Shown: piece by piece, positions 4,526-52,661 of the stretch
Layout of the letters: every line of letters starts with the position of its first letter
Numbering within the stretch: position 1 is the stretch's first letter
DNA from: an uncultured Bdellovibrionales bacterium
GTDB taxonomy: Bacteria > Patescibacteriota > Minisyncoccia > Moranbacterales > DUUL01
Length of the DNA: 53,879 nt
Direction of reading: 5' to 3'
NCBI GenBank assembly: GCA_964643985.1
Contig: CAZXUS010000003.1
Span: 1 to 53,879 of the forward strand
The notes under the pieces: model-generated
What the model saw: only the letters and a program-made list of their open reading frames with translations
Database searches by the model: none
Told to the model about the DNA's origin: nothing
Translations under genes and position numbers: made by a program

Positions 4526-4529
4526 TATA

Positions 4530-4720
4530 GGGACTGTTTCCAAATACAGTTTTATAGCGAAAAATTAGAATTTTGAGGTAAATTTTTCAAACAATTTTTG
4601 AAGCTTTAGCGTTAGTTAAGGCAATAAAATTTTTGTAAAATTTAACCAAAATTATAATTTTGTCCGCCTCGGCAAGCCTCAGCGAGACGGGCAGTAAAAA
4701 GGGTGTTTGGAAACAATCCC
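4530..4720. mobile_element. MITE-like element, family D (TIR GGGACTGTTTCCAAA), copy 1, carrying a nested 29-bp palindromic insert at 4663-4691
   Basis: Left end is GGGACTGTTTCCAAATAC. The right end TTTGGAAACAATCCC is its inverted repeat. The internal long AT-rich hairpin is shared with copies at 34091, 34476 and 52467. Confidence 0.7.
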
Positions 4721-6863: not shown

Positions 6864-7003
6864 TGTCATTCCCGCTCACATCTTGTCATTTCCGCACTCA
6901 ACTTGTCATTCCCGCTTTAAACTTGTCATTCCCGCGGAGGCGGGAATCCAGAATTTTAAGATTATGACTTCTCCCCCTAGATTCCCGCCTCCGCGGGAAT
7001 GAC
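6864..7003. repeat. Family A array: four 20-bp units (TGTCATTCCCGC+N8), a terminal palindrome GTCATTCCCGCGGAGGCGGGAATCCAG (6925-6951), and an inverted copy (6981-7003)
   Basis: Units start at 6864, 6884, 6904 and 6924. The stem-loop is ATTCCCGC-GGAG-GCGGGAAT. The reverse-orientation copy is ATTCCCGCCTCCGCGGGAATGAC. Confidence 0.85.
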
Positions 7004-7104
7004 AAAGATGTTTTTACTTTTAATTTAGGCTCTTATCTTTTAACTTTTATATTATTGAAATTTTTTTATAAATACCCTATGTTTAAATAAATACCTTAAT
7101 CCTC

Positions 7105-7554: not shown

Positions 7555-7567
7555 AATTTTGAATTTC

Positions 7568-7617
7568 AAATTTTGAATTTTGCTGTGCCTCGCCGTAGCT
7601 TTAGCGAAGGCGGGATT
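7568..7617. repeat. Left arm of a 50-bp inverted repeat flanking ssrA (contains the family B1 core CCTCGCCGTAGCTTTAGCGAAGGCGGG)
   Basis: AAATTTTGAATTTTGCTGTGCCTCGCCGTAGCTTTAGCGAAGGCGGGATT matches the reverse complement of 8404-8453 at 49 of 50 positions. Confidence 0.9.
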
Positions 7618-7791
7618 CAATGTCGAATGAACTAATTTCTTAATTTTTAAATAAAATTTATTTAGAGAATTAAGTCATTAAAAATTGATTAAAAATTCAA
7701 AATTGGAAATTTAAAATTAAGAAAAGCTAATCTTTTTTTAATTTTATTTCCTAAAGATTAACTTTTAATAAAACATTAAACGTGTACCCTC

Positions 7792-8265
7792 GGGGGTGTC
7801 AGGCTTCGACAGGTTAAGTATTTTGAAATTTGCAAGCTGAGTTATATGCCTCATTAAAAGCATATAGGGATTGGCTTTAAGTGTTATTTTGTTTTCAAAA
7901 TTGAAAAGAACATTTAAAGCCAATCCCGAAACCTTATAAGTGCAAACTTATATAACAAAGCAAAAAGTGCGTTAGCATCAGCTTTCACACCCAATTTTGC
8001 TGCTGCCATAGCTTAATATAACCTATGGTCCATCGATTGATCGACTCTCAATAGATCTTATTCGGTGTCAACATTGAGATATAATTAATTTGTTTTCTTT
8101 TGGCAAATTAGTTGAATTCTACAAAAGAGGATTTATTAATTATTTTGTTTGTTTAAAGATTTTTAAATTCTATGGAATTTTATTATTCCTAAAATAAACA
8201 CTCTAAGCTTGTAGACGATTTTAAAATTTTGACACTGGACATGGGTTCAATTCCCATCACCTCCA
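7792..8265 (+). ncRNA. ssrA: tmRNA (SsrA), about 474 nt
   Basis: The 5' end GGGGGUGUCAGGCUUCGACAGG pairs with the 3' end CACCUCC-A. It has a G3:U wobble (alanine identity) and a T-arm GGGUUCAAUUCCC. CCA is not fully encoded. The tag reading frame GCA(7942)..TAA(8016) encodes ANLYNKAKSALASAFTPNFAAAIA. Confidence 0.9.
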
Positions 8266-8403
8266 CAAATTATTTTACTCTCTTAGTAGAGAGTAAAAAA
8301 TTAATTTTTAATTTTTTAATTTTTAATGACTTAATTTTTAATTACGCAAGCTCTGCCTGCGTTCATTGAGACATTGTTTAAAAAATTAAGTAATTCAAAA
8401 TTA

Positions 8404-8453
8404 AATCCCGCCTTCGCTAAAGCTACGGCGAGGCACAACAAAATTCAAAATTT
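8404..8453. repeat. Right arm of the 50-bp inverted repeat flanking ssrA
   Basis: See 7568-7617. Further matching inverted blocks lie at 7671-7687 / 8318-8334 (TTAAGTCATTAAAAATT). Confidence 0.9.
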
Positions 8454-8547
8454 ATAATGCCCTTTGGGTGTAAAATTTCTTTCTGCCATTGCCAAAAACA
8501 TAACTTTTTGATATATTTAATAAAATTTAATAAACTAAACTAAAACC

Positions 8548-9140: not shown

Positions 9141-9338
9141 ATGCCAAAACTTAAATCAAGAAAAGCAGTGACAAAAAGGTTTAAAACAACCGCTACTGGA
9201 AAGGTTTCCAGAAGAAAGTCCAATCAAAATCATTTCAACGCTCGACAGACTTCTGACCAAAAAAGAGCCAAGCGAGGCAACCAAATAGTCACCCCCGGAA
9301 AAATTAGCCGGTCAATCAAAATGGATATTCATAGTTAG
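9141..9338 (+). CDS. rpmI: 50S ribosomal protein L35
   Basis: MPKLKSRKAVTKRFKTTATGKV.. is typical L35 and sits in the infC-rpmI-rplT order. Confidence 0.9.
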   Translation: MPKLKSRKAVTKRFKTTATGKVSRRKSNQNHFNARQTSDQKRAKRGNQIVTPGKISRSIKMDIHS

Positions 9339-9408
9339 TTGTTAAAAATAGAGTAGAAGTATAAATCAAGAAATAATTCGAATAATCAGAAGAAAATTTA
9401 TAGGTTTA

Positions 9409-9490
9409 AGTGTAGTTCGAGGCGGATTTGAGCAACGAACGAGACGCACTAAGTTGGTGCGTCGAGTGAGTAGCGGAAAATCCAACAAAG
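9409..9490 (+). repeat. Family C structured element (AGTGNAGTTCGAGG..GAGCAACG..hairpin..GAGTGAGTAGCGG), intergenic copy between rpmI and rplT
   Basis: Conserved blocks are shared with 39201-39278 (reverse strand), 42254-42345 and 52326-52466. Central hairpin is GACGCAC-TAAGTTG-GTGCGTC. Confidence 0.8.
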
Positions 9491-9523
9491 AAATACACCA
9501 AACATTTAATTTTCAATATATAC

Positions 9524-9877
9524 ATGCCAAGAATAAAACGAGGTGTCACCGCTTCAAAAAGACGATCGAATCTATTAAGCCGAGCCAAAGGTTTCAAATG
9601 GCGACGAAAAAGTAATTATCGAGCTGCCAAAGAAGCTTTGATTAAAGCTGGAAAATATTCCTACCGAGATCGAAAAAATAAAAAACGAACTTTCCGAGCA
9701 CTTTGGATTTTGCGATTGAACAATGCTCTAAGAGCCAACGATTGGAAATATTCAACTTTTATCAAATATCTACGAGACAACGTTATCGAATTAGATCGAA
9801 AAGTTCTTTCTGGCCTAGCCATGAACGAACCAGAAATCTTCAAACGAATGATTGATAAATTTAAAGCGACTAAATAA
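9524..9877 (+). CDS. rplT: 50S ribosomal protein L20
   Basis: MPRIKRGVTASKRRSNLLSRAKGF.. is typical L20. Confidence 0.95.
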   Translation: MPRIKRGVTASKRRSNLLSRAKGFKWRRKSNYRAAKEALIKAGKYSYRDRKNKKRTFRALWILRLNNALRANDWKYSTFIKYLRDNVIELDRKVLSGLAMNEPEIFKRMIDKFKATK

Positions 9878-10100: not shown

Positions 10101-10165
10101 TTCAACTCTCCGCTTTGTCATCTACAATTCCCGCTTTCATCTTTGTTTTTACTGCTATCGTTTTT

Positions 10166-10190
10166 GTCATTCCCGCGGAGGCGGGAATCC
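10166..10190. repeat. Family A palindrome GTCATTCCCGCGGAGGCGGGAATCC, preceded by decayed CCCGCTTT units
   Basis: Exact match to the core at 6925-6949. Degenerate units are visible from about 10110. Confidence 0.85.
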
Positions 10191-10284
10191 AATTTATCAA
10201 ATAAAATTCAATCCCACCCAAAAAACCCAAAACAAAAAGGCACTGTTCCTCGAACACCACCTTCATAAAATATTTTTTTTAATT

Positions 10285-10593
10285 TCAATTCTCCAAAAAA
10301 GAACTTTCATACTCAAGCTTATCAATAAAATGGATAATCAATCCAACTATTAAATAAAGAAATTCCATTAACGCAACGAACAACCAATGAACTGGAAGAA
10401 AAAATCCAAGAATAGTGAAGAATAATAACACTATCCCAATTAAAAAAAGAAAAGTATTAGATAAATCATTTTTGGTGTCTATGAAACAAACCCACCCCAA
10501 CAATTTCAAATAAAAAATAACCTTTCTCCATTTTTTCATACTCCCCTCCCCTTTTAATTTATCTATGACTTTTTTATCTACTAATTTCCCCAC
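10285..10593 (-). CDS. Hypothetical small membrane protein
   Basis: 102-aa ORF with two or three hydrophobic segments and no recognisable motif. Start codon is uncertain (an internal MKKWRK start is possible). Confidence 0.35.
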   Translation of the reverse strand: MGKLVDKKVIDKLKGEGSMKKWRKVIFYLKLLGWVCFIDTKNDLSNTFLFLIGIVLLFFTILGFFLPVHWLFVALMEFLYLIVGLIIHFIDKLEYESSFLEN

Positions 10594-10768
10594 GGTTCAA
10601 CCCTGGTAAATTCCCATGGTTCAACCGCGGGGAAACTGTAAAAAAATTACTATCAAGAAACAACTCCGCTTAAAAAACTCCAAATCAACTCCAAACATCA
10701 TTATTATCCAAAAAACCCTTCCGAACAAGAGTATTTGACTATTTATTATTATTCCTATCTTCATTTTG

Positions 10769-10859
10769 TCATTCCTACTCGCACTCTCAATGAAGCAAAC
10801 ATTGATAACTTTGTCATTCCCGCTCACATTCTGTCATTCCCGCGGAAGCGGGAATCCAG
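10769..10859. repeat. Family A array (GTCATTCC units) ending in the palindrome GTCATTCCCGCGGAAGCGGGAATCCAG (10833-10859)
   Basis: Same architecture as 6864-6951. The track ORF 10621..10827 overlaps it and is probably spurious. Confidence 0.8.
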
Positions 10860-10873
10860 TTTAAAAAATACAA

Positions 10874-11258
10874 TCATAAATTACTCTCCAAAAAATCCTT
10901 AAGCGCTTTTAAATCTTTTTTATCTTTATCATAATAATAAGTCTTTATCCCAACAGACTGTGCACTTTCAACTGCCTCTTTATCATGTTCAAAATAAACA
11001 ACATCCTCTGCTTTCAAATTAAAAAATTCCAACATTTTCTGATAATATTCTAGATTAGTCTTTTCAGGACTATGTTTCAAGGTAAAAACTTCATAAGCCA
11101 ATTTATTTAAACCGAATTTTTCCATTTGTTCATCGTTTGCTCCAGTCAAAACAATTTTTTTATTTGGATACTCTTCCAACAATTCATACATACCCCCTAT
11201 GAATTCCACTTTCTTTAATGACGAAAGCATTAACCGCATCCACTAAAATTGTTTTCAT
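10874..11258 (-). pseudogene. HAD-superfamily hydrolase disrupted by a +1 frameshift in a G5 (C5 on + strand) run
   Basis: ATG at 11258 gives MKTILVDAVNAFVIKESGIHRGYV*. The track ORF (10874..11239) continues ..GGMYELLEEYPNKKIVLTGAND.. in another frame. Deleting one C from 11193-11197 joins them as ..GIHRGMYELLEEY.. Confidence 0.65.
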
Positions 11259-13284: not shown

Positions 13285-13312
13285 CTCTCCCATACACTGG
13301 AGTATGGGAGAG
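13285..13312. repeat. Family F palindrome CTCTCCCATAC-ACTGGA-GTATGGGAGAG
   Basis: 11-bp arms. The same sequence recurs inside miaB at 37125-37150. A degenerate relative lies at about 13755-13790. Confidence 0.85.
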
Positions 13313-13319
13313 ATACTTT

Positions 13320-13769
13320 TCATTTTTCATCCCTCTTATTTTTATAATTATCCAATAAATTAAATATTAGAAAATGAGCTGGAAATTTTTGCTTCATCGC
13401 TTCCCACTCATTGGTCGGCAAAATTTTTCTCCGTTGTTTTTGATTTTTTGCTTCTTTAAACTCATTCATATATCCACCAAAACCACTAAAAAGCCAACGA
13501 TTGACACTTCCAATTGTGCTATTTCCAACTTTCAGTTTCTTTTGTATGTCAGGATAAGAAAAACCCACCAATAACATTTTAGCAATCTCTATTCTATGCA
13601 TTATCATTATAATTTCCCCAGGAGTCAACAAGTCCCTCAAAAATTTTTCTGCATTTTGCTCTGTTTTTATTCTGGAAATCATTCCACAAAATTCCTTCAG
13701 CATTCTCTTCCTTTTTTGTGGATCAACATCATAAAATCTTTTTCTCATTTTTTCTTCACTACCATACAC
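13320..13769 (-). CDS. TrpR-like / YerC-YecD family DNA-binding protein
   Basis: ..FLRDLLTPGEIIMIMHRIEIAKMLLVGFSYPDIQKKLKVGNSTIGSVNRWL.. resembles the YerC/YecD (Trp repressor-related) family. Confidence 0.6.
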   Translation of the reverse strand: MYGSEEKMRKRFYDVDPQKRKRMLKEFCGMISRIKTEQNAEKFLRDLLTPGEIIMIMHRIEIAKMLLVGFSYPDIQKKLKVGNSTIGSVNRWLFSGFGGYMNEFKEAKNQKQRRKILPTNEWEAMKQKFPAHFLIFNLLDNYKNKRDEK

Positions 13770-13801
13770 TGTAGTATAGTAGTGTCTATTATTTTTATTA
13801 A

Positions 13802-16605: not shown

Positions 16606-16755
16606 GTCATTCCCGACTTGTTCAGAAATCCAAAAAAGGAAGTCTTTAGTTTAAATTTTCTGGATTCCCGCCTCCGCGGGAATGACAGAATTAGAGGCAA
16701 AAATCAAGAAATTTAGAATAACAATATTGTCATTCCCGCGGAGGCGGGAATCCAG
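16606..16755. repeat. Family A cluster: a degenerate unit (16606-16633), an inverted palindrome (16660-16686) and a direct palindrome (16729-16755)
   Basis: CTGGATTCCCGCCTCCGCGGGAATGAC and GTCATTCCCGCGGAGGCGGGAATCCAG face each other 42 bp apart, just upstream of valS. Confidence 0.85.
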
Positions 16756-16775
16756 ACTTTTATTTTACAAACTTC

Positions 16776-34064: not shown

Positions 34065-34090
34065 TTTTATATTATTTTAAGATTTATTAA

Positions 34091-34251
34091 GGGGCTATTT
34101 CCAATCACAATTTTGTTACGAAATTTTTCAATTTTGAGATAAATTATTTAAAAATTTTTGAAGCTTTAATGATAATTAAGGCAAAACAATTTTTAGATAA
34201 TTTATCTCAAAATTGAAAAATTGCAGTAAGAATGGTGACTGGAAACAGTCC
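34091..34251. mobile_element. MITE-like element, family D, copy 2
   Basis: GGGGCTATTTCCAATCAC ... GTGACTGGAAACAGTCC terminal inverted repeats. The internal hairpin is shared with the other copies. Confidence 0.7.
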
Positions 34252-34333: not shown

Positions 34334-34475
34334 ATCATTAGTACTTGTGGCGATTGGCGTATCCACCAAATACGCATCTTTTAAAAGATTGAGAGATTAT
34401 TCTCCGCTAAACCAAGCAAATTTTAAAGAGTCTTAGTTTTAAAAACTAGGGAATCTAAGTGGAACCGCGATAAAA

Positions 34476-34638
34476 GGGACTGTTTTCAAACATTGTTTTG
34501 TTGTGAAAAGCTAGAATTTTAAGATAAATTTTTCAAATAATTTTTGCAGGACTAGCAAATCGCTAATTCAAAAAAATTTTTGAAAAATTTAGCTAAAATT
34601 ATAGTTTTGCAACAAAAAGAATGTTTGGTAATAGTCCC
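34476..34638. mobile_element. MITE-like element, family D, copy 3, inside the T-box antiterminator loop
   Basis: GGGACTGTTTTCAAACATT ... AATGTTTGGTAATAGTCCC. Confidence 0.7.
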
Positions 34639-36752: not shown

Positions 36753-37865
36753 ATGAAATATTTTATCCGCACTTTCGGTTGTCAAATGAATTTCTCCGAT
36801 TCCGAACGAATGGCAACTTTTTTTGAACAAAATAATTTTGAACCAGCCGACAAAATCGATCAGGCTGATTTAGTGATTTTCAACACTTGCGGAGTGCGCC
36901 AAATGTCCGAACACAAAGTCTACGGCCACGTTCACAATGTTTTTAAAAAAGACCCCCAAAGAAAAAAAATTGTAGTTGTCACCGGCTGTCTCGCTCACCG
37001 CGAAGAATTTCGAAAACGACTAGAAAATAAAGTCGATTTATTTTTACCCATCAAAGACTTCCCTAAAATATTAAAATTAATCGAAAAAAACAAAACTCTT
37101 TTAAAAAAATTAAAAGCAACTAAGCTCTCCCATACACTGGAGTATGGGAGTGAAGAAAATTGCTATCTTAAAATAAAGCCCAAGTACGAGAAAAAGGAAT
37201 CCGCTCTCGTGCCAATTATGACCGGATGTAATAATTTCTGCACTTATTGCATTGTTCCCTACGCCCGCGGACCTGAATGGTCTCGACCTTTTAAGGAAAT
37301 TCAAACAGAAATTAAAAAACTATGTCCTTACACGTGTAAGGACATATGTAAGGACATAACTCTGCTAGGACAAAATGTAAACTCTTACCGAGATAACGAA
37401 ATTTCCTTCCCGATCCTGCTAAACACTCTAGCCAAAGAATTTCCCAAAATAACTTTCAGATTTCTCACTTCTCATCCCAAAGATTATTCCGATGAACTTA
37501 TCAACGTCATTGCTCAAAACAAAAATATTTCCCGTCAAATTCATCTGCCAATTCAAGCCGGCAGTGACAAAATCCTCAAAGCGATGAACCGCCCTTACAC
37601 TCAAAAATATTATTTAAACCTCATTAAAAAAACTCGAGAAAAAATTCCGGAGGCTAAAATCTCCACCGACGTAATTGTCGGTTTCCCTGGAGAGTCCGCA
37701 GAAGATTTTCAAGAAACCGTCAAAGTTTTTAAAGAAGTTAAATTCTCCGAAGCCTTCCTTAATAAATATTCCCCCCGTCCCGGCACCGCCTCTTTCAATC
37801 TCAAAGACAACATTTCTTTGGATGAGAAAAAAAGAAGAGAACAAGAATTAAGAAAATATTTCTAA
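36753..37865 (+). CDS. MiaB/RimO-family radical-SAM methylthiotransferase lacking a TRAM domain
   Basis: N-terminal FGCQMNFSDSE..NTCGVR and radical-SAM CNNFCTYCIVPYARG. The ORF ends at ..EKKRREQELRKYF, right after the core. It contains two palindromic repeats (37125-37150 and 37322-37357). Confidence 0.8.
   Translation: MKYFIRTFGCQMNFSDSERMATFFEQNNFEPADKIDQADLVIFNTCGVRQMSEHKVYGHVHNVFKKDPQRKKIVVVTGCLAHREEFRKRLENKVDLFLPIKDFPKILKLIEKNKTLLKKLKATKLSHTLEYGSEENCYLKIKPKYEKKESALVPIMTGCNNFCTYCIVPYARGPEWSRPFKEIQTEIKKLCPYTCKDICKDITLLGQNVNSYRDNEISFPILLNTLAKEFPKITFRFLTSHPKDYSDELINVIAQNKNISRQIHLPIQAGSDKILKAMNRPYTQKYYLNLIKKTREKIPEAKISTDVIVGFPGESAEDFQETVKVFKEVKFSEAFLNKYSPRPGTASFNLKDNISLDEKKRREQELRKYF
37125..37150. 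repeat. Family F palindrome inside the miaB-like CDS
   Basis: CTCTCCCATACACTGGAGTATGGGAG is identical to 13285-13310 and is read in frame as ..LSHTLEYGS.. Confidence 0.85.
37322..37357. repeat. Perfect 24-bp palindrome ATGTCCTTACACGTGTAAGGACAT plus a 12-bp tandem copy, inside the miaB-like CDS
   Basis: Read in frame as ..LCPYTCKDICKDI.., at the position where family members usually carry a short helix before ..ITLLGQNVNSY. Confidence 0.8.
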
Positions 37866-37937: not shown

Positions 37938-37973
37938 GCTCGCCTCGCCATAGCCTTAACGAAGGCGGGCGAG
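37938..37973. repeat. Family B1 element (GCTCGCCTCGCCATAGCCTTAACGAAGGCGGGCGAG)
   Basis: Related to 7585-7617 and 8404-8437. Confidence 0.7.
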
Positions 37974-39032: not shown

Positions 39033-39854
39033 TTAATTGTAAATTAGTACCACTATCTCTCCTTTGACTTTATCTGGATTTTCTTCGTAATATTTTTTAA
39101 TATCAGCGACTTCTCCGCGTTTTATTTCTTCAAATATCTTAGTTAATTCTCGCCCTAAAATTATTTTCTTGCCTGAACTACGAGTTTGGCACATTTCTTT
39201 GTCAAAACCTCCGCTACTCACTCCACGTACTTTCAAATACGCTTCTTTGCGTTGCTCGGCTTTTCCTCGAACTGCACTCAAATTCATATTTCCTGATTCT
39301 TGGGAATTTTCAAATTCTTCTTGTAATTTCTCTATTAATTCCAAATTTTTCATCAAACGATAAGGAGATTCATAATAAAGAGTTGGATAATTAGAAGCTA
39401 GAACTTCTCGGAAAAATTTCTCCCGACCTTTTTTGTTGGGTGGAAAACCCATAAAAGTGAAACGAGTCATATTAATTCCAGCCACGGAAACCAAAGCACT
39501 CAAAGCATTAGCTCCTGGGATGGGAGTTATTTTTATATCATTTCCAAAAAATTCCAAAGCACGTTCAATCAAAAGATTACCCGGATCAGAAATTCCTGGC
39601 GTTCCTGCATCGGTCACCAAAGCTACTTTCTCAACCTGCTTCATCTCCTCTAAAATCTTCCTAATCTGATTATCATTACTTTGCTGATGATAAGCTTTCA
39701 AGGGCTTAACAATTTCATACTTGTTTAGTAAGACTTTAGTTTTTCTAGTATCCTCGCAAAGAATAAAATCTGCCTCCTTAAGGGTTCGAACCGCTCGAAA
39801 GGTAATGTCCTCCAAATTGCCAATCGGCGTAGCAACAATCGAAAATTCTAACAT
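39033..39854 (-). CDS. rsmI: 16S rRNA (cytidine1402-2'-O)-methyltransferase RsmI with an internal insertion of about 45 aa
   Basis: ..VATPIGNLEDITFRAVRTLKEADFILCEDTR.., ..TDAGTPGISDPG.., ..GRELTKIFEE.. The insertion is ..ENSQESGNMNLSAVRGKAEQRKEAYLKVRGVSSGGFDKEMCQTRSSG.. Confidence 0.85.
   Translation of the reverse strand: MLEFSIVATPIGNLEDITFRAVRTLKEADFILCEDTRKTKVLLNKYEIVKPLKAYHQQSNDNQIRKILEEMKQVEKVALVTDAGTPGISDPGNLLIERALEFFGNDIKITPIPGANALSALVSVAGINMTRFTFMGFPPNKKGREKFFREVLASNYPTLYYESPYRLMKNLELIEKLQEEFENSQESGNMNLSAVRGKAEQRKEAYLKVRGVSSGGFDKEMCQTRSSGKKIILGRELTKIFEEIKRGEVADIKKYYEENPDKVKGEIVVLIYN
39201..39278 (-). repeat. Family C element inserted in frame in rsmI
   Basis: The - strand reads AGTGCAGTTCGAGGAAAAGCCGAGCAACGCAAAGAAGCGTATTTGAAAGTACGTGGAGTGAGTAGCGGAGGTTTTGAC. 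It has the same length and conserved blocks as 9412-9489. Confidence 0.8.
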
Positions 39855-39863
39855 TAAAGTAAT

Positions 39864-42104
39864 TTAATTTTTAATTTCTCCCTCTTCTTTGACCTGCGAC
39901 AAGCTCACTGAAAAAACCTTTGAATAACCACCAGAATCCATCGTAATTCCATATAAAATATCCGACATTCGCATCACTTCGCGAGAATGAGTGGCTAAAA
40001 TAAATTGGGTTTTGTGGGAAAGTCGTTTTAAAATTTTACTAAATTTATCGGCGTTGGCTTCGTCCAAATTAGCTTCAATTTCATCTAAAAAAGCAAATGG
40101 GGGTGGGTTGTAGGAAATCAAAGCAAACAGCAAGGCAATCGAGGTCAAAGTCCGCTCTCCGCCAGAAAGCATATTTAAATTATTAATTCGCTTTCCCGGA
40201 GGATTGACTTTAATCTCAATTCCATACTCAATTTGTTTTTCTGTTTCTTCTGAATCATCTTCTAAATCATCGGTTCCCTCAACCCCTTTTCTTTTTTCAA
40301 TTTTAATTTTTTCCAATTTAGCTGAACCTCCGGCAAATATTTGTTTAAAATAAATAGCAAATTCTTTATTAATAGAAAGAAAAGCTTGGCTTAAACGTTT
40401 TTTAATGGTCTTTTCCATTTCAACAATCACGCTGCTCAAATCACTCAAAGTCAATTTCAAATCTTGAGATTCTTTTTTTAAAAAATCATATTTTTCCTGA
40501 AGTTCTCGATGCTCCTCCACTACTGCTACATCGATTTCCTTAACTTGTTCTAACTGCCAATTAAGTTTTTCAATCTCCATTTTCAAATCTTCTGTACTCA
40601 ATCGACCAGAAATCGCTCGCAACTCTTTAATTTCACCTTTAAAATTAGTTTGAATATCTTTTTCAATTTCCCTTAATTCTTGCTCAAGCTTGTTTTTTTC
40701 TAGCCTTAAATGTTGAATATATCGTTCCGCTTTTTCCATTTCAAATTGCTCTCTACGAAGTTGATCCTTGTAATTCACTCTTAATTCCTGCTTTTTTTGA
40801 CTTTCCAGATTAATCACTTGAATTTTCTTATTTTTATCAACTATCTGCTGTTTGCAGTTTTCAATTTTAGCCAAATTCAAATCAGCCAAATCTTTAATTT
40901 TAACCAAATCTTTTTTCATTAAAGCTTTCTTTTGTTCAATTTCCTTGTTAGCTTTCTTTTTCACAGTCTTTCCCGCTTGAATTTCTTTTAATAAATCATT
41001 AATACTGGTCAGAATTTTGGTCACTAAAGATTTACTTTTTTGATTATTCAAATCTTCTTTAATCGCTTTTAATTTCAATAAAATATATTCTTTATCAACC
41101 AAAATAATCTCTTCTTTGTCTAGTTGCTCAATTTTTTCCCGAAGTGATTTTAACTCAATTTCTTTTTGAAAACCCACTCGCTCTAATTCATAGCGCTCAC
41201 TTTCTAATTGAGTTTTTTCTTTTTCTATTTTGGCAATTAACTGATTTTTGATTTGAACAGAATCGTCACTACTTTCTTGAAGTTTTTGATTAACTTCTAC
41301 TATTTTACTTTGACTATTTTCAATTTGGTTTTCAATTTTATTTAATTCAGAGCTGTTTTTTAGTTGATTTTTTTCGGCATTATTCAATTTAACTGCAAAA
41401 TATTGTTTTCTTTTTTCCGCCAATTCTTCTCGAGTTTTTTGACTTTTTTCAATTTTTCGACTTTGATTTTTCAAAACTCTTAATTCTGGTTCGATTTCTC
41501 GCATTAAAGAAATCGCTTTTTCAATATTAATTTTGGTTTTCTTAATTCTTCGAATACTTTTCTTTTTTTTCAGTTGAAATTCTTTTACTCCCGCCGCATC
41601 TTCTAAAAATTCCATTCGTTCCAACGGACTCGATAAAAGAATTTGATCCGTCATTCCTTGATTAACAATTGTATAATTGCCATGTCCAATTCCAGCTCGA
41701 GAAAGTAAATTCATCAAATCAAATAATTTAACTTTACTATTGTTGATCAAATAGTGATTTTCTCCATCTCGATAAATTTTTCGAGTAATCACCACTTGAT
41801 CATAATCAATATCAAAACGCTTACTAGAATTATCAAAAAAAACTGAAACCTGAGCGCAACCCAACTGAGCTTTAGTTGAAGAACCGGCAAAAATGATGTC
41901 TTCCCTTTTATTACCTCGAAGGTTTTTCGCTGATTTTTCCCCAATCACCCATCTTAAAGCGTCCGAAACATTTGATTTTCCACTACCGTTTGGTCCAACC
42001 ACACAGGTGACACCATTTTTTAAATTTTTTCCACCCGAAAAATCCAAGATTGTTTTCTTGGCAAAAGATTTAAATCCAGTAATTTCTATTTTCTGAACAA
42101 ACAC
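39864..42104 (-). CDS. smc: SMC-family ATPase, unusually short (746 aa) with no recognisable hinge
   Basis: N-terminal head ..ITGFKSFAKKT..VVGPNGSGKSNVSDALRWV.. and C-terminal head ..LSGGERTLTSIALLFAL..FLDEIEANLD. About 420 aa of charged coiled coil lie between them. Confidence 0.75.
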   Translation of the reverse strand: MFVQKIEITGFKSFAKKTILDFSGGKNLKNGVTCVVGPNGSGKSNVSDALRWVIGEKSAKNLRGNKREDIIFAGSSTKAQLGCAQVSVFFDNSSKRFDIDYDQVVITRKIYRDGENHYLINNSKVKLFDLMNLLSRAGIGHGNYTIVNQGMTDQILLSSPLERMEFLEDAAGVKEFQLKKKKSIRRIKKTKINIEKAISLMREIEPELRVLKNQSRKIEKSQKTREELAEKRKQYFAVKLNNAEKNQLKNSSELNKIENQIENSQSKIVEVNQKLQESSDDSVQIKNQLIAKIEKEKTQLESERYELERVGFQKEIELKSLREKIEQLDKEEIILVDKEYILLKLKAIKEDLNNQKSKSLVTKILTSINDLLKEIQAGKTVKKKANKEIEQKKALMKKDLVKIKDLADLNLAKIENCKQQIVDKNKKIQVINLESQKKQELRVNYKDQLRREQFEMEKAERYIQHLRLEKNKLEQELREIEKDIQTNFKGEIKELRAISGRLSTEDLKMEIEKLNWQLEQVKEIDVAVVEEHRELQEKYDFLKKESQDLKLTLSDLSSVIVEMEKTIKKRLSQAFLSINKEFAIYFKQIFAGGSAKLEKIKIEKRKGVEGTDDLEDDSEETEKQIEYGIEIKVNPPGKRINNLNMLSGGERTLTSIALLFALISYNPPPFAFLDEIEANLDEANADKFSKILKRLSHKTQFILATHSREVMRMSDILYGITMDSGGYSKVFSVSLSQVKEEGEIKN

Positions 42105-42253
42105 AATACAAAATTTTTAATTTTTAATTTTGTAATTTTATAAATAAATTTAAAATCTAAATTTTTAAACACTCTCAATCAAGACGTTTTAAATTAAAAA
42201 ATTAAGTTTTATTTAAAAATTATAAAATTATATTTTCAGAATTTAAAATTTTG

Positions 42254-42345
42254 AGTGCAATTCGAGGCGAAACTGAAGATTTCAATGAGACGCACTGACT
42301 GGTGCGGCGAACTGGAACCGGAAGTTTCAACGAAGAAGTGTGCCA
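42254..42345 (+). repeat. Family C element, intergenic copy between rnc and smc (antisense to both)
   Basis: AGTGCAATTCGAGGCGAAACTGAAG..GAGACGCACTGACTGGTGCGGCGAACTGGAACCGGAAGTTTCAAC. Confidence 0.7.
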
Positions 42346-42361
42346 AAATGCAAATTCATAT

Positions 42362-43057
42362 CTATTTCCATTTTTTGGCTAATAGACCATTCTCGGCGGC
42401 ACTGCGCTGAGCTTCCTGTTTTGAAGCTCCCTCTCCTTCCGCCACTTTCTCATCCTTCAAAAAAACCGCTATCAAAAAATTCTTATCGTGATCTGGTCCC
42501 CATTCTTTAACCAATTCATAATGCGGAGTGACTTGAGCAATTTCTTGAGCTTTTTCTTGGAAATAGCTTTTAGCATCCAAATAAGTTTTATTTTTAAGAA
42601 TTTCTGGAAGTTTGACGATAATATATTTATTGATGAATTTATCAACTTCCTCAAAACCTTTATCTAAATAAATACTTCCAATCAAAGCTTCCATAGCATT
42701 GGCTAAAATATAATTTCGCGCTTTTCCAGTGTCTTTTCTTTCTCCCTTGGACATTAAAAGAAAATCATCTAATTTGATTTCTTTAGCAACTATGGCCAAC
42801 ATCTCACCATTTACCAAAGCCGCTCGCCAGCTAGTTAAATCTCCCTCTTGATTTTTGTGATTTTTGAAAAGATAATCCGTGACGGATAATTCTAAAACTG
42901 CGTCTCCTAAAAATTCTAAACGTTCATTGTGAGGCAACTCATATTGTCGGTTTTCATTTAAATAAGACCGATGAGTCATTGCCTCTTGCAAGTGATTAAA
43001 ATTCTTAAAAGATAAGTTTATTTTTTTCGCCAAATCTTTTAATCCTTGATTTTCCAT
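42362..43057 (-). CDS. rnc: Ribonuclease III
   Basis: Signature ERLEFLGDAVLE and a C-terminal dsRBD (..EGEGASKQEAQRSAAENGL). Confidence 0.95.
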   Translation of the reverse strand: MENQGLKDLAKKINLSFKNFNHLQEAMTHRSYLNENRQYELPHNERLEFLGDAVLELSVTDYLFKNHKNQEGDLTSWRAALVNGEMLAIVAKEIKLDDFLLMSKGERKDTGKARNYILANAMEALIGSIYLDKGFEEVDKFINKYIIVKLPEILKNKTYLDAKSYFQEKAQEIAQVTPHYELVKEWGPDHDKNFLIAVFLKDEKVAEGEGASKQEAQRSAAENGLLAKKWK

Positions 43058-43652: not shown

Positions 43653-43895
43653 TTAAGCTGCTATTTTAAACTCTTTTCGATCACAATATTCTGCAGTTTT
43701 ACCCACATTCCACTGTTTCACGGGAGTTATAAAACCTACAACTCTAGCATAAACTTCAGTCCCAATAAACTTATTTGCACAATTTTCACATCGGTAAACT
43801 CCTTCTTTTTTCCAAAAACTCACATTGGAATCCCCAACTTTAATTTCCTTTCCACAATCAACACATCTTGTGTTTTTTGATATTGATTTTGTCAT
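43653..43895 (-). CDS. Stand-alone NrdD C-terminal module: Zn-ribbon plus glycyl-radical domain (80 aa)
   Basis: CVDCG..CENC, then ..TEVYARVVGFITPVKQWNVGKTAEYCDRKEF, matching the class III RNR C-terminal pattern EVYSR(V/I)xGY..WNxGKxxE..R. Confidence 0.75.
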   Translation of the reverse strand: MTKSISKNTRCVDCGKEIKVGDSNVSFWKKEGVYRCENCANKFIGTEVYARVVGFITPVKQWNVGKTAEYCDRKEFKIAA

Positions 43896-44044: not shown

Positions 44045-46141
44045 TCAACTGACTATCTCAGAATAAACCTCACATTGCTGTTCTATTAAACACTTAGGAC
44101 ATTGTTTATGTTCTCCACTCAAATAACCGTGAATTGGACAAACACTAAAAGTTGGAGAAAGAGTAAAGTAAGGCATTTTATAACCAATAGCAATCTTTTT
44201 AACAAAAGACTTAACTATCTCAATATCATTAATTTTTTCTCCTAAAAAAGTGTGAAAAACAGTTCCTCCCGTATATTTAGTTTGAAGTTGATCTTGCAAA
44301 TCTAAAGCTTCGAATGGATCATCTGAAAATCCAACTGGCAATTGAGAAGAGTTCGTGTAATAAGGAGTCTCTTCGATTTTATCTTTTTTGTTGCTATTGG
44401 CAAAAATCATTTTAGGAAATCGATTTTTATCCTTCAGAGCTAATCTATAGCTAGTTCCTTCAGCTGGAGTAGCTTCTAGATTATATAAACTACCCGTCTC
44501 TTTTTGAAAATCAATCATTCTATCTCTCATAAAATCTAAAATTTCCTCGGCTAATTTCACCCCTTTTTTCGTTGTAATATCTTCTCTGATAAAATTCAAA
44601 AGAGCTTCGTTCATCCCAATAATTCCAATAGTAGAAAAGTGGTTACCCCAATAAGTCCCTCTCCTTTTAAACATATCCTTTAAATAAAATTTCGAGTAAG
44701 GATATAATCCATTTTGAGTAAATCCTTCAATTGTTTTTCTTTTAATCTCCAAGCTTTCCTTAGCAATGTCCATTAGATTGCTTAAACGTTTTAAGAAATC
44801 AGCTTTATCTTTAGCTAAATAACCAATTCGAGGTAAATTAATAGTGACGACGCCGATAGACCCAGTTAACGGAGCTGATCCAAATAGACCACCCATTCTT
44901 TTGTGTAATTCTCGATTATCCAATCGCAATCGACAACACATTGATCGAGCGTCCTCAGGATCCATATCAGAATTTACAAAATTGGCAAAATATGGAATTC
45001 CATATTTAGCCGTCATTTGCCAAACTTTATCTAATTTTTTATCATCCCAATTAAAATTTTTAGTTATATTATAGGTTGGAATCGGAAAAGTGAAAACTCG
45101 TCCAGTAGCATCTCCCTCGCTCATTACTTCCGCAAAAGCTTGATTAATCATATTCATTTCTTCTTGAAAATCTCCATAAGTATCCTTTTGCGGTTTTCCT
45201 CCAACAATAATATTTTGGTCCTTATACATTTTAGGACAATTCAAGTCCATCGTAATATTAGTAAAAGGAGTTTGAAAACCAACCCGAGTTGGAACGTTTA
45301 AATTAAAAACAAACTCTTGCATCGCCTGTTTGACTCCTTTGTAATCTAATTTATCATATTTAACAAATGGAGCTAATAAAGTATCAAAGTTGGAAACAGC
45401 TTGAGCTCCAGCAGCTTCTCCTTGAGTTGTATAGAAAAAATTCACTAACTGCCCCAAAGCTGGTCGAAGATGTTTTGGCGGTTTACAAGAAACTTTTCCA
45501 GCCACCCCAGTAAAACCCTGCGTTAACAAATCCTGCAAATCCCAACCGCAACAATAGGCGGAAACCTTGTCTAAATCATGAACATGAAAATCACCTCCTT
45601 CGTGAGCACGCTTAATTGATTTTGGATAAACTCTTTCCATCCAATACTTTCCACTAACAATTGAGGAAATATAGTTATTCAAACCTTGCAAAGAATAAGC
45701 CATATTAGAATTTTCCTTGACTTGCCAATCAATTTCACCCAAATATTTATCGACTAAATTAACCGCTTCGTCTAAAGATTTTTCAGTATTCCGCAATGAA
45801 GAACGCTTATTTCGATAAAGAATATAGGCTTTAGCGGTTTTATCAAAATCCAAAATCATCAGAACCTGCTCGATTGTGTCTTGAACTTCTTCGATATTGG
45901 GAATATAGCCAGGTCGAGCTTTTTTTAACAACATTTGAACCGCTTTTTTGGTGACGTTATCCGCCGCCTTCAGGCTTCCTTCTCCAATCTCTTTAAAGGC
46001 TTTGTAAACTGCTTCTTTAATTTTACTTTTATCAAATTCAACGATTGAACCATCTCTCTTGATAATCTTTTCAATAGTTTTTTTCGCCTTAGCTTTTTTC
46101 ACTGGGCTTTTTTTCTTTTCCGCATTTTTTTGTTTTTTCAT
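44045..46141 (-). CDS. nrdD: Anaerobic ribonucleoside-triphosphate reductase large fragment, truncated just at the glycyl-radical motif
   Basis: ATP-cone (IIKRDGSIVEFDKSKI), class III core and Zn site (CPIHG..CPKC). Ends ..QQCEVYSEIVS*, where homologs continue EVYSRIxGY... Confidence 0.9.
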   Translation of the reverse strand: MKKQKNAEKKKSPVKKAKAKKTIEKIIKRDGSIVEFDKSKIKEAVYKAFKEIGEGSLKAADNVTKKAVQMLLKKARPGYIPNIEEVQDTIEQVLMILDFDKTAKAYILYRNKRSSLRNTEKSLDEAVNLVDKYLGEIDWQVKENSNMAYSLQGLNNYISSIVSGKYWMERVYPKSIKRAHEGGDFHVHDLDKVSAYCCGWDLQDLLTQGFTGVAGKVSCKPPKHLRPALGQLVNFFYTTQGEAAGAQAVSNFDTLLAPFVKYDKLDYKGVKQAMQEFVFNLNVPTRVGFQTPFTNITMDLNCPKMYKDQNIIVGGKPQKDTYGDFQEEMNMINQAFAEVMSEGDATGRVFTFPIPTYNITKNFNWDDKKLDKVWQMTAKYGIPYFANFVNSDMDPEDARSMCCRLRLDNRELHKRMGGLFGSAPLTGSIGVVTINLPRIGYLAKDKADFLKRLSNLMDIAKESLEIKRKTIEGFTQNGLYPYSKFYLKDMFKRRGTYWGNHFSTIGIIGMNEALLNFIREDITTKKGVKLAEEILDFMRDRMIDFQKETGSLYNLEATPAEGTSYRLALKDKNRFPKMIFANSNKKDKIEETPYYTNSSQLPVGFSDDPFEALDLQDQLQTKYTGGTVFHTFLGEKINDIEIVKSFVKKIAIGYKMPYFTLSPTFSVCPIHGYLSGEHKQCPKCLIEQQCEVYSEIVS

Positions 46142-52163: not shown

Positions 52164-52325
52164 AGTTTTATTTTGAAATTTACAATAAACTTTTGATAAA
52201 TATTCAATACTCAACATTCAACATTCATTCAACAACTAAATACTTCAATACTCAATTATTGAATATTGATAAATTGGATATTGAATGAATATTGTTTATT
52301 GAATATTGAACATTTGCTCTTAATT

Positions 52326-52466
52326 AGTACGGCGAACGAAAAGTGCAGATTTCAACATAATAAACGCCTCCAAAGCTAGAGACTTAATAATTTAAGTAAA
52401 GTTTGAGGAGAATTTGAGCACCGAGTAAGACGTACTGAAAAGTACGGCGAACGAGTGGCGGAAATA
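52326..52466 (+). repeat. Family C element(s): a partial copy plus a full copy
   Basis: AGTACGGCGAACGA occurs twice (52326 and 52441). The full unit is ..GTTTGAGGAGAATTTGAGCACCGAGTAAGACGTACTGAAAAGTACGGCGAACGAGTGGCGGAAATA. Confidence 0.7.
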
Positions 52467-52627
52467 GGGACCAAGTTTGAATACAATTTCGTAATGAAAT
52501 TTTAAATTTTTGAGGTAAATTATTCAAATAATTTTTGAAGCACTGGCCATAGTCAATGTAATAAAATTTTTGTATAATTTAGCCAAAAATTTTAGATTGA
52601 ATAGAAAGAGTATTTAAATTTAGTCCC
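52467..52627. mobile_element. MITE-like element, family D, copy 4
   Basis: GGGACCAAGTTTGAATAC ... GTATTTAAATTTAGTCCC, with the shared internal hairpin (..TTTTGAGGTAAATTATTCAAATAATTTTTGAAGC..). Confidence 0.7.
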
Positions 52628-52661
52628 AAGACAAAAAAATTTACTAAATTTTTAAGTCTCA

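Follow-up and report, generated by a model that had tools for sequence, protein, structure and literature searches.

A structured palindromic repeat family of Patescibacteria with one copy in frame inside rsmI

The rsmI insertion and its relatives in the window

The window analyzed here is a stretch of 53,879 nucleotides (contig CAZXUS010000003.1, assembly GCA_964643985.1) from an uncultured bacterium that was deposited under the name Bdellovibrionales and is placed by GTDB in the Patescibacteriota. Its rsmI gene, for the 16S rRNA C1402 2'-O-methyltransferase, carries an in-frame insertion that belongs to a structured repeat, here called family C, with further copies between genes of the same window (Table 1). 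The original prediction, made from the letters of the window, had singled out a 78-nt block inside rsmI (39201-39278, minus strand), whose sequence is exactly as it was quoted, together with three related spacer elements, and had proposed that their structure is under selection. That observation is confirmed and its interpretation supported, with corrections to the size of the element, to the fourth copy and to the reach of the parallel drawn with the Rickettsia palindromic elements (RPE).

The rsmI product matches the Pfam family TP_methylase (E = 3e-24) and the RsmI chains 5hw4, 3kwp and 9pzg of the PDB (E = 1e-34 to 1e-36), and its orthologs are annotated as 16S rRNA C1402 2'-O-methyltransferase. 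An insertion of about 45 amino acids (aa) had been predicted; we measured 44 aa against close orthologs and approximately 47 aa against both E. coli RsmI (5hw4) and 3kwp. Among the closest RsmI proteins only P0001 and P0002 contain the segment, P0002 (84% identical) being the sole ortholog to share it. It is missing from the other 19 proteins (P0003-P0021; 227-233 aa; 62-73% identity overall, approximately 85% over the aligned part), some of which are named Moranbacteria or Moraniibacteriota. At the DNA level, the filled rsmI genes of the window and of locus L001 exceed the empty gene of L002 by 132 nt, and the site is likewise empty in L119, L120 and L121. Because close orthologs and solved RsmI structures lack the segment, it is inserted rather than ancestral, with boundaries known to within a few nucleotides. 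Alignments to the solved structures break between residues 175 and 228 of the window protein, corresponding to chain residues 173 and 179, and the site in 5hw4 and 3kwp is a short loop of 6-10 residues. In the AlphaFold model, residues 184-227 (approximately) have low per-residue confidence (pLDDT 37-64) between better-predicted core elements, and the insertion site is modeled as a low-confidence surface excursion.

Similarity among the copies in the window was assessed by sliding the 78-mer, without gaps, over both strands. Background identities averaged 19.7 (sd 3.9) with a maximum of 36, and the three spacer copies exceeded that maximum with 48/78 at 9409-9486, 46/78 at 42254-42331 and 38/78 at 52394-52471. 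The first of these had been placed 3 nt away, at 9412-9489. The 78-nt block is a genuine repeat, but only the inner part of a hairpin of about 119 nt. The covariance model R1, run across the whole window with filters off, recovered exactly four copies and no other convincing match. The fourth, which was absent from the R1 training set, had been described as 52326-52466; it is indeed related, but consists of two parts with a hairpin of another family, D1, nested between them, and its weak R1 score is due to that split. The nested D1 element has a minimum free energy (MFE) of -49.3 kcal/mol (z = -7.1). Once it is removed, the two parts refold into the canonical rod (-31 to -32 kcal/mol) with ends TAGAGACTT...AAGTCTCA. 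The loop pattern GTTCGAGG-N7-GAGCAACG is limited to the two best copies in the window and matches in 0 of 100 shuffles.

Table 1. Positions in the window of rsmI, the family-C copies, their neighbors and the matches to covariance model R1
Feature	Position	Strand	Remarks
rsmI, 16S rRNA C1402 2'-O-methyltransferase gene	39033-39854	minus	273 aa; host of the insertion
rsmI insertion relative to empty-site orthologs	39174-39305	minus	132 nt, 44 codons; peptide SQESGNMNLSAVRGKAEQRKEAYLKVRGVSSGGFDKEMCQTRSS
Family-C rod hairpin in rsmI	39175-39293	minus	119 nt, first to last paired base; encloses 39201-39278
Family-C copy, rpmI-rplT spacer	9394-9512	plus	sense relative to the operon; flanking open reading frames 9141-9338 and 9524-9877
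Family-C copy between rnc and smc	42239-42357	plus	antisense to both; 4 nt from the rnc stop codon
rnc	42362-43057	minus	neighbor of the 42239-42357 copy
smc	39864-42104	minus	neighbor of the 42239-42357 copy
Fourth family-C copy, 5' part	52377-52466	plus	interrupted by nested D1
Fourth family-C copy, 3' part	52628-52661	plus	pairs with 52377-52410 after D1 removal
Nested D1 hairpin element (second family)	52467-52627	plus	161 nt; GGGAC...GTCCC ends
R1 match	39162-39300	minus	145 bits
R1 match	9387-9525	plus	138 bits
R1 match	42232-42370	plus	133 bits
R1 match	52373-52502	plus	33.6 bits, E = 1.5e-6

The D1 family (approximately 160 nt, with (A)GGGAC...GTCCC ends) has other copies at 4527-4662, 34088-34223 and 34473-34608. 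In its outer stem it is similar to family C, and R1 scores it at 21 bits through the outer helices only.

Folding strand and nucleotide-level constraint

The three window copies analyzed for folding share one rod-like dot-bracket of approximately 100-120 nt, with MFE values of -30 to -37 kcal/mol and z-scores of -3.8 (the rsmI copy, -30 kcal/mol), -6.0 (the 9394-9512 copy, -36.7 kcal/mol) and -2.3; in each case the opposite strand folds less well. RNAalifold, given these three copies and the L001 ortholog, returned 39 pairs and compensatory changes in 14 of these, and the pairing reaches the inverted termini. The covarying stems quoted in the original prediction are thus correct. Family C is approximately 120-127 nt long and has sharp inverted ends, AGGACTT...AAGTCCT, directly outside of which sequence information falls to zero. 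The TTCGAGG strand folds as a rod in which internal loops with conserved sequences (GUUCGAGG facing ACGAAGAAAU, and GAGnA... facing ...GnAnCGGA) lie between the 5-6 helices.

An alignment of 113 copies, collected as described below, bears out this structure. Pairing is kept in 94.2% of cells, compared with 69.5% after shuffling and 32-46% when the partners are slid, and compensatory changes occur in 36 of the 39 pairs, giving a covariation score of 0.64 versus 0.19 for shuffles. The same alignment distinguishes the two strands. G-U pairs, some at conserved positions, outnumber A-C mismatches (GU+UG 261, AC+CA 77), indicating that selection for folding acts on the TTCGAGG strand. The excess is present whether the flanking genes run antisense (134:45) or sense (36:13) relative to that strand; a mutational origin was therefore rejected.

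The copy inside rsmI allows constraint on nucleotides and on peptide to be separated, as the two orthologous filled genes (window and L001) can be compared for synonymous (dS) and non-synonymous (dN) divergence. Across the 44 codons of the insert there were 1.0 synonymous and 12.0 non-synonymous differences (dS 0.036, dN 0.126), whereas the remaining 227 codons had 83.5 and 42.5, respectively (dS approximately 1.1, dN 0.08; Fisher test p = 4.6e-5). The ratio dN/dS is accordingly about 3.5 in the insert, versus 0.07 elsewhere in the gene. A compensatory change from C-G to U-A in the central hairpin replaced two amino acids of the peptide (A by V, R by H). The near absence of synonymous change in the insert relative to its host gene therefore reflects selection for the nucleic acid rather than for the peptide: the constraint on this segment is at the level of nucleotides and structure, in agreement with the selection on structure first proposed. 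The rsmI copy is in this sense a natural experiment, in which nucleotide-level constraint overrides protein-level constraint within an essential-type gene.

As predicted, the rsmI copy is in frame and open. The frame used in rsmI is open in 25 of 97 family-C copies and no frame is consistently open across the family, which led us to reject a coding module. A profile of the translated element found nothing significant among 5.8 billion proteins, a database for which so short a query is poorly suited.

Distribution, gene context and mobility

Patescibacteria, also called the candidate phyla radiation (CPR), are tiny-celled organisms with tiny, streamlined genomes, and to our knowledge almost no mobile or non-coding elements have been characterized in them. 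We searched for family C with a pattern made of loop nucleotides only (23 bases specified), using one genome per species; the estimated number of chance matches is below 1. The pattern identified 114 stretches in approximately 73 species-level Patescibacteria genomes, with 1-6 matches per genome in addition to extra copies found by R1. In 100 of these pattern loci, each examined over approximately 8 kb, R1 located 113 copies, including 13 that the pattern had not picked. The family proposed from four copies in one window is therefore real, but its size and taxonomic breadth had been underestimated.

All informatively named carriers are Patescibacteria (Moraniibacteriota, Yanofskybacteria, Paceibacterota, Sungiibacteriota, Kerfeldbacteria and Parcubacteria/Patescibacteria groups). 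Several carriers are third-party (TPA) assemblies labeled Bdellovibrionales, Gammaproteobacteria, Saccharibacteria or Peribacteria (for example loci L009, L014, L019 and L027, and further L029, L033, L064 and L088). At least two of these, CAYWJP01 and CAZTBI01, appear to be mislabeled, since the proteins flanking their copies are 81-86% identical to Moranbacteria proteins. No family-C copy of the window matched any of the 4227 covariance models of Rfam 15 at the gathering threshold, and two copies matched none to E = 10. Phage carriage was rejected, as viral contigs gave 0 matches to the loop pattern, and so was a tRNA-like origin, ARAGORN reporting only a tRNA-His and the tmRNA in the window. 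Literature searches turned up no account of an element like this in Patescibacteria.

Copies are placed in a characteristic way relative to genes. In tandem contexts, the flanking genes are antisense to the TTCGAGG strand in 52-55 instances and sense in 15-16. For 66 of the 113 copies, the antisense strand carries an open frame of 100 codons or more whose stop codon is no farther than 48 nt from the core, which places it 0-12 nt from the end of the element; in ten of these frames the stop codon is the TAG with which TAGGACTT ends. Within single loci of 6-8 kb (L094, L108 and L030), orientation changes with the local gene. It therefore tracks the neighboring gene and not the direction of replication, and a replication-strand cause of the bias was rejected. 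The genes upstream of copies span 68 Pfam families, the recurrent ones being pilC (6), mreB (5), exo/endonuclease-phosphatase (5), pilB (4) and tuf, infC, rplJ and rnc (2 each). Pairwise identity among the MreB proteins in question is only 41-78%. A role as terminator of the upstream gene was also rejected: in the majority orientation, the mRNA sequence past the hairpin is A-rich, not U-rich, and weakly T-rich flanks lie on the strand opposite the upstream-gene mRNA. Within 70 nt upstream of the copies there was no promoter-like positional conservation, arguing against an independent promoter. Ten candidate long open reading frames containing other copies were inspected and set aside, the copies lying upstream of real domains or true starts, or within spurious frames (GC-rich regions). 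The rsmI insertion is thus the sole convincing intragenic case, a single gene lineage among approximately 120 copies.

Comparison of related loci reveals both filled and empty sites. Besides rsmI, which holds the insert in the window and L001 but not in the relatives listed above, a copy follows nrdD in L119 and is missing there from L120, L121 and the window. The site after rnc (rnc-smc) is occupied in the window, L088/L119, L120 and L121, by copies of different subfamilies, and the L121 copy is decaying (43 bits). Together with the D1 element nested in the copy at 52.4 kb and the sharp inverted ends, these filled and empty sites indicate a mobile palindromic repeat. The ends frequently read TAGGAC...GTCCTA (a flanking T in approximately 40% of copies and a flanking A in approximately 30-40%), and the filled and empty sites are too diverged for junctions to be read.

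The loop of RsmI that received the family-C copy has been entered by other sequences as well. Unrelated inserts occupy the same loop in other Patescibacteria RsmI proteins, and those of L122 and L123 are in-frame hairpins of the TGTCATCCCGC...GCGGGATCCAG family, which is also found in spacers of the window. As inserts of different repeat families share this loop, it is a permissive site that has been repeatedly invaded.

Several further observations concern these loci. The nrdD gene (anaerobic ribonucleotide reductase) is present as a long open reading frame and a separate frame of approximately 80 aa in four related genomes (window 44045-46141 and 43653-43895, minus strand; L119 3242-5916; L120 3478-5911; L121 2361-4767), and in L119 the family-C copy fills the gap, replacing the last codons of the long frame. 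A third repeat family, TGTCATTCCCGCGGAGGCGGGAATCCAG, is frequently arranged in inverted pairs (window 6864-7015, 10144-10192, 10811-10859 and 16647-16756). It is found also at 4088-4867 of L122, in frame in the same RsmI loop, and at 4198-5058 of L123, whose RsmI has it inserted at a second loop too. The L123 contig, which carries this RsmI with in-frame hairpin inserts, encodes at 10493-11161 a 222-aa protein with a weak match to Y1_Tnp (IS200/RAYT-type transposase), a candidate mobilizing enzyme for such repeats. Genes of the 23S_rRNA_IVP family adjoin rsmI in relatives (L119 9572-9925; L123 5088-5474 and 6421-6816), not in the window, and one of them also matches bAvd.

Other repeats are present in the window. 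The tmRNA gene (7792-8268) is bracketed by 81-nt inverted repeats (7563-7643 and 8378-8458, 88% complementary), which contain a fourth repeat, GCCTCGCCGTAGCTTTAGCGAAGGCGGG, also present at 37942-37969. A short palindromic repeat, CTCTCCCATACACTGGAGTATGGGAGAGA, has three copies (13285-13313, 13757-13785 and 37125-37153), and an AT-rich 42-nt inverted repeat with TTCAATA-like units (52198-52315) lies just upstream of the split family-C copy.

What keeps the structure, and comparison with known repeats

Taken together, our results make it probable that family C is a non-autonomous palindromic repeat of Patescibacteria, mobile or recently mobile, of the kind represented by ERIC, RPE and Correia elements. 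One copy would have inserted into the permissive surface loop of RsmI in an ancestor of the window and L001 organisms. With a length divisible by three and a frame that was by chance open, it would have been read through, adding 44 residues to the enzyme as what is presumably a tolerated passenger. We favor the idea that the conserved loops and one-strand pairing are kept through a trans-acting protein that would recognize the folded single strand, either single-stranded DNA during mobilization, as for REP/RAYT or attC, or an RNA, for example an antisense one. An mRNA-level function is unlikely to maintain the structure, as the strand that folds and that of the mRNA usually differ. Copies might persist mainly after stop codons, with the folding strand as the template strand, because this placement is the least harmful or the least prone to excision.

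Several points weigh against this explanation. Neither a transposase nor an autonomous parent was found; there was none beside the copies in the 8-kb loci, and no systematic search was made. Target-site duplication is not established, TA at the ends being frequent but not universal. The loop sequences are common to Moraniibacteriota, Yanofskybacteria, Paceibacterota, Sungiibacteriota and Kerfeldbacteria, which is deeper than is usual for decaying selfish repeats; in the 113-copy set, loop conservation was partly imposed, because the search pattern demanded those loops and left the stems free. The orientation counts ignore the common ancestry of copies. Finally, copies recur after mreB, pilB and pilC in divergent genomes (with MreB proteins only 41-61% identical), which could point to a conserved host function and not to a parasite. 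Family C does depart from a textbook repeat in its deep loop conservation, strand-specific pairing and antisense bias next to stop codons. We also consider, with less conviction, a Patescibacteria-wide class of structured nucleic acid with a dedicated protein partner, whether an antisense small or ribozyme-like RNA at gene ends or a hairpin for mobilization of single-stranded DNA; if it exists, the strand asymmetry, stop-codon adjacency and antisense bias would reflect its mechanism.

The alternatives overlap with the mobile-repeat explanation, and the main dispute is over what keeps the structure. Family C could be a host-functional structured RNA, such as a processing or stability element of 3' untranslated or intergenic regions (for example a site for RNase III or another RNase) or an antisense small RNA, kept at particular operon junctions and duplicated into rsmI by accident. 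The very strong covariation and the loops conserved across deep lineages would be expected of such an RNA, as would the conserved G-U positions with their one-strand pairing excess. It would also account for copies recurring after mreB, pilB, pilC, infC, tuf, rplJ and rnc in divergent genomes, for the 66 of 113 that lie just downstream of a stop codon, and for an orientation set by the local gene rather than by replication; the nucleotide constraint still present inside rsmI can be counted on the same side. Yet in 55 of 71 tandem contexts the flanking genes run antisense to the strand that pairs better, which is thus usually outside the mRNA, no conserved promoter lies upstream, and the upstream-gene mRNA continues past the hairpin with A-rich, not U-rich, sequence. 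Presence and absence vary among close relatives, one copy at the rnc site is decaying, the neighboring genes come from 68 Pfam families and Rfam has no match. On balance we regard a host RNA as doubtful, though deserving of consideration.

A site for recombination or transposition of single-stranded DNA, used by a dedicated Patescibacteria enzyme and comparable to REP/RAYT or integron attC, would explain why pairing is selected on one strand whichever way transcription runs, and why the asymmetric loops are conserved. Its folding strand is usually the template strand of the neighboring gene, and the orientation bias could arise if copies whose active strand is rarely exposed are those that persist. 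The post-gene position with fixed relative orientation recalls attC sites, if by analogy, and one other Patescibacteria contig (L123) has the weak Y1_Tnp match. No integrase, RAYT or Y1 transposase is linked to the element, however, and copies are dispersed after housekeeping genes instead of forming cassette arrays; REP elements are shorter by a factor of 3-4, attC sites lack the loop-sequence conservation of family C, and orientation tracks local genes, not replication. We consider this quite improbable, and less so only than the notion that rsmI has here an ancestral or functional domain of the enzyme, with a coincidental likeness to the spacer elements. An open, in-frame segment kept by two diverged orthologs would suit such a domain, but the data refute it: all other close orthologs and the solved structures lack the segment, the same peptide was not seen in unrelated RsmI proteins, dN/dS is about 3.5 in the insert and 0.07 in the rest of the gene, R1 assigns the insert 145 bits and AlphaFold confidence is low across it.

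A non-autonomous mobile repeat thus remains our preferred explanation. Family C is in any case an apparently undescribed, well-supported repeat with a defined structure, which can be modeled and scanned for in metagenomes, and its strand-specific pairing and antisense bias are testable clues to a trans-acting partner.

Among known systems, REP elements are 20-40 nt long with GTAG or CGTC tags, and attC sites have R boxes and stand in cassette arrays beside an integrase. Family C resembles REP/REPIN-RAYT and attC in general terms, as an extragenic palindrome whose structure is selected on one DNA strand and whose copies lie just after genes. It differs in being approximately 120 nt long and dispersed, and in having no known cognate enzyme. 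It was not assigned to attC, its copies being dispersed and the sequences of its internal loops conserved; no search was aimed specifically at R boxes or an integrase.

The enterobacterial repetitive intergenic consensus (ERIC, also IRU) is similar in size, a 127-bp imperfect palindrome with a long stem-loop, found in transcribed intergenic regions near gene ends, often with TA termini, and its orientation matters for its effect on upstream mRNA (PMC2229807). Family C is likewise a palindromic stem-loop (approximately 120-127 nt) dispersed near gene ends and often has TA termini. It occurs in another phylum and has no known sequence relation to ERIC, the strand that pairs better mostly runs antisense to the gene upstream, its loops are common to several candidate-phylum names, and no target-site duplication has been demonstrated for it. 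The Correia (NEMIS) elements of Neisseria are hairpins resembling MITEs (miniature inverted-repeat transposable elements) that lie by or overlap gene ends, and their transcripts form RNase III substrates; their features include terminal inverted repeats of 24 bp, a duplicated TA and an IHF site (PMC2229807). Family C is also a MITE-like hairpin repeat at gene ends, with one copy directly after rnc, but none of these three Correia features is established for it.

The RPE of Rickettsia, 105-146 bp in length, have an open frame and were found in 19 protein genes, the insert being tolerated by the protein (PMC2229807). Family C is a palindrome of similar size that is present both in spacers and in frame in a conserved housekeeping gene, and the analogy drawn in the original prediction is a fair one. 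It extends less far than was supposed: family C is carried by another host clade, none of its frames is consistently open (that of rsmI in 25 of 97 copies), and the lone convincing intragenic copy is that of rsmI. In the CPR, as is known from Rickettsia, hairpin repeats do invade core genes in frame.

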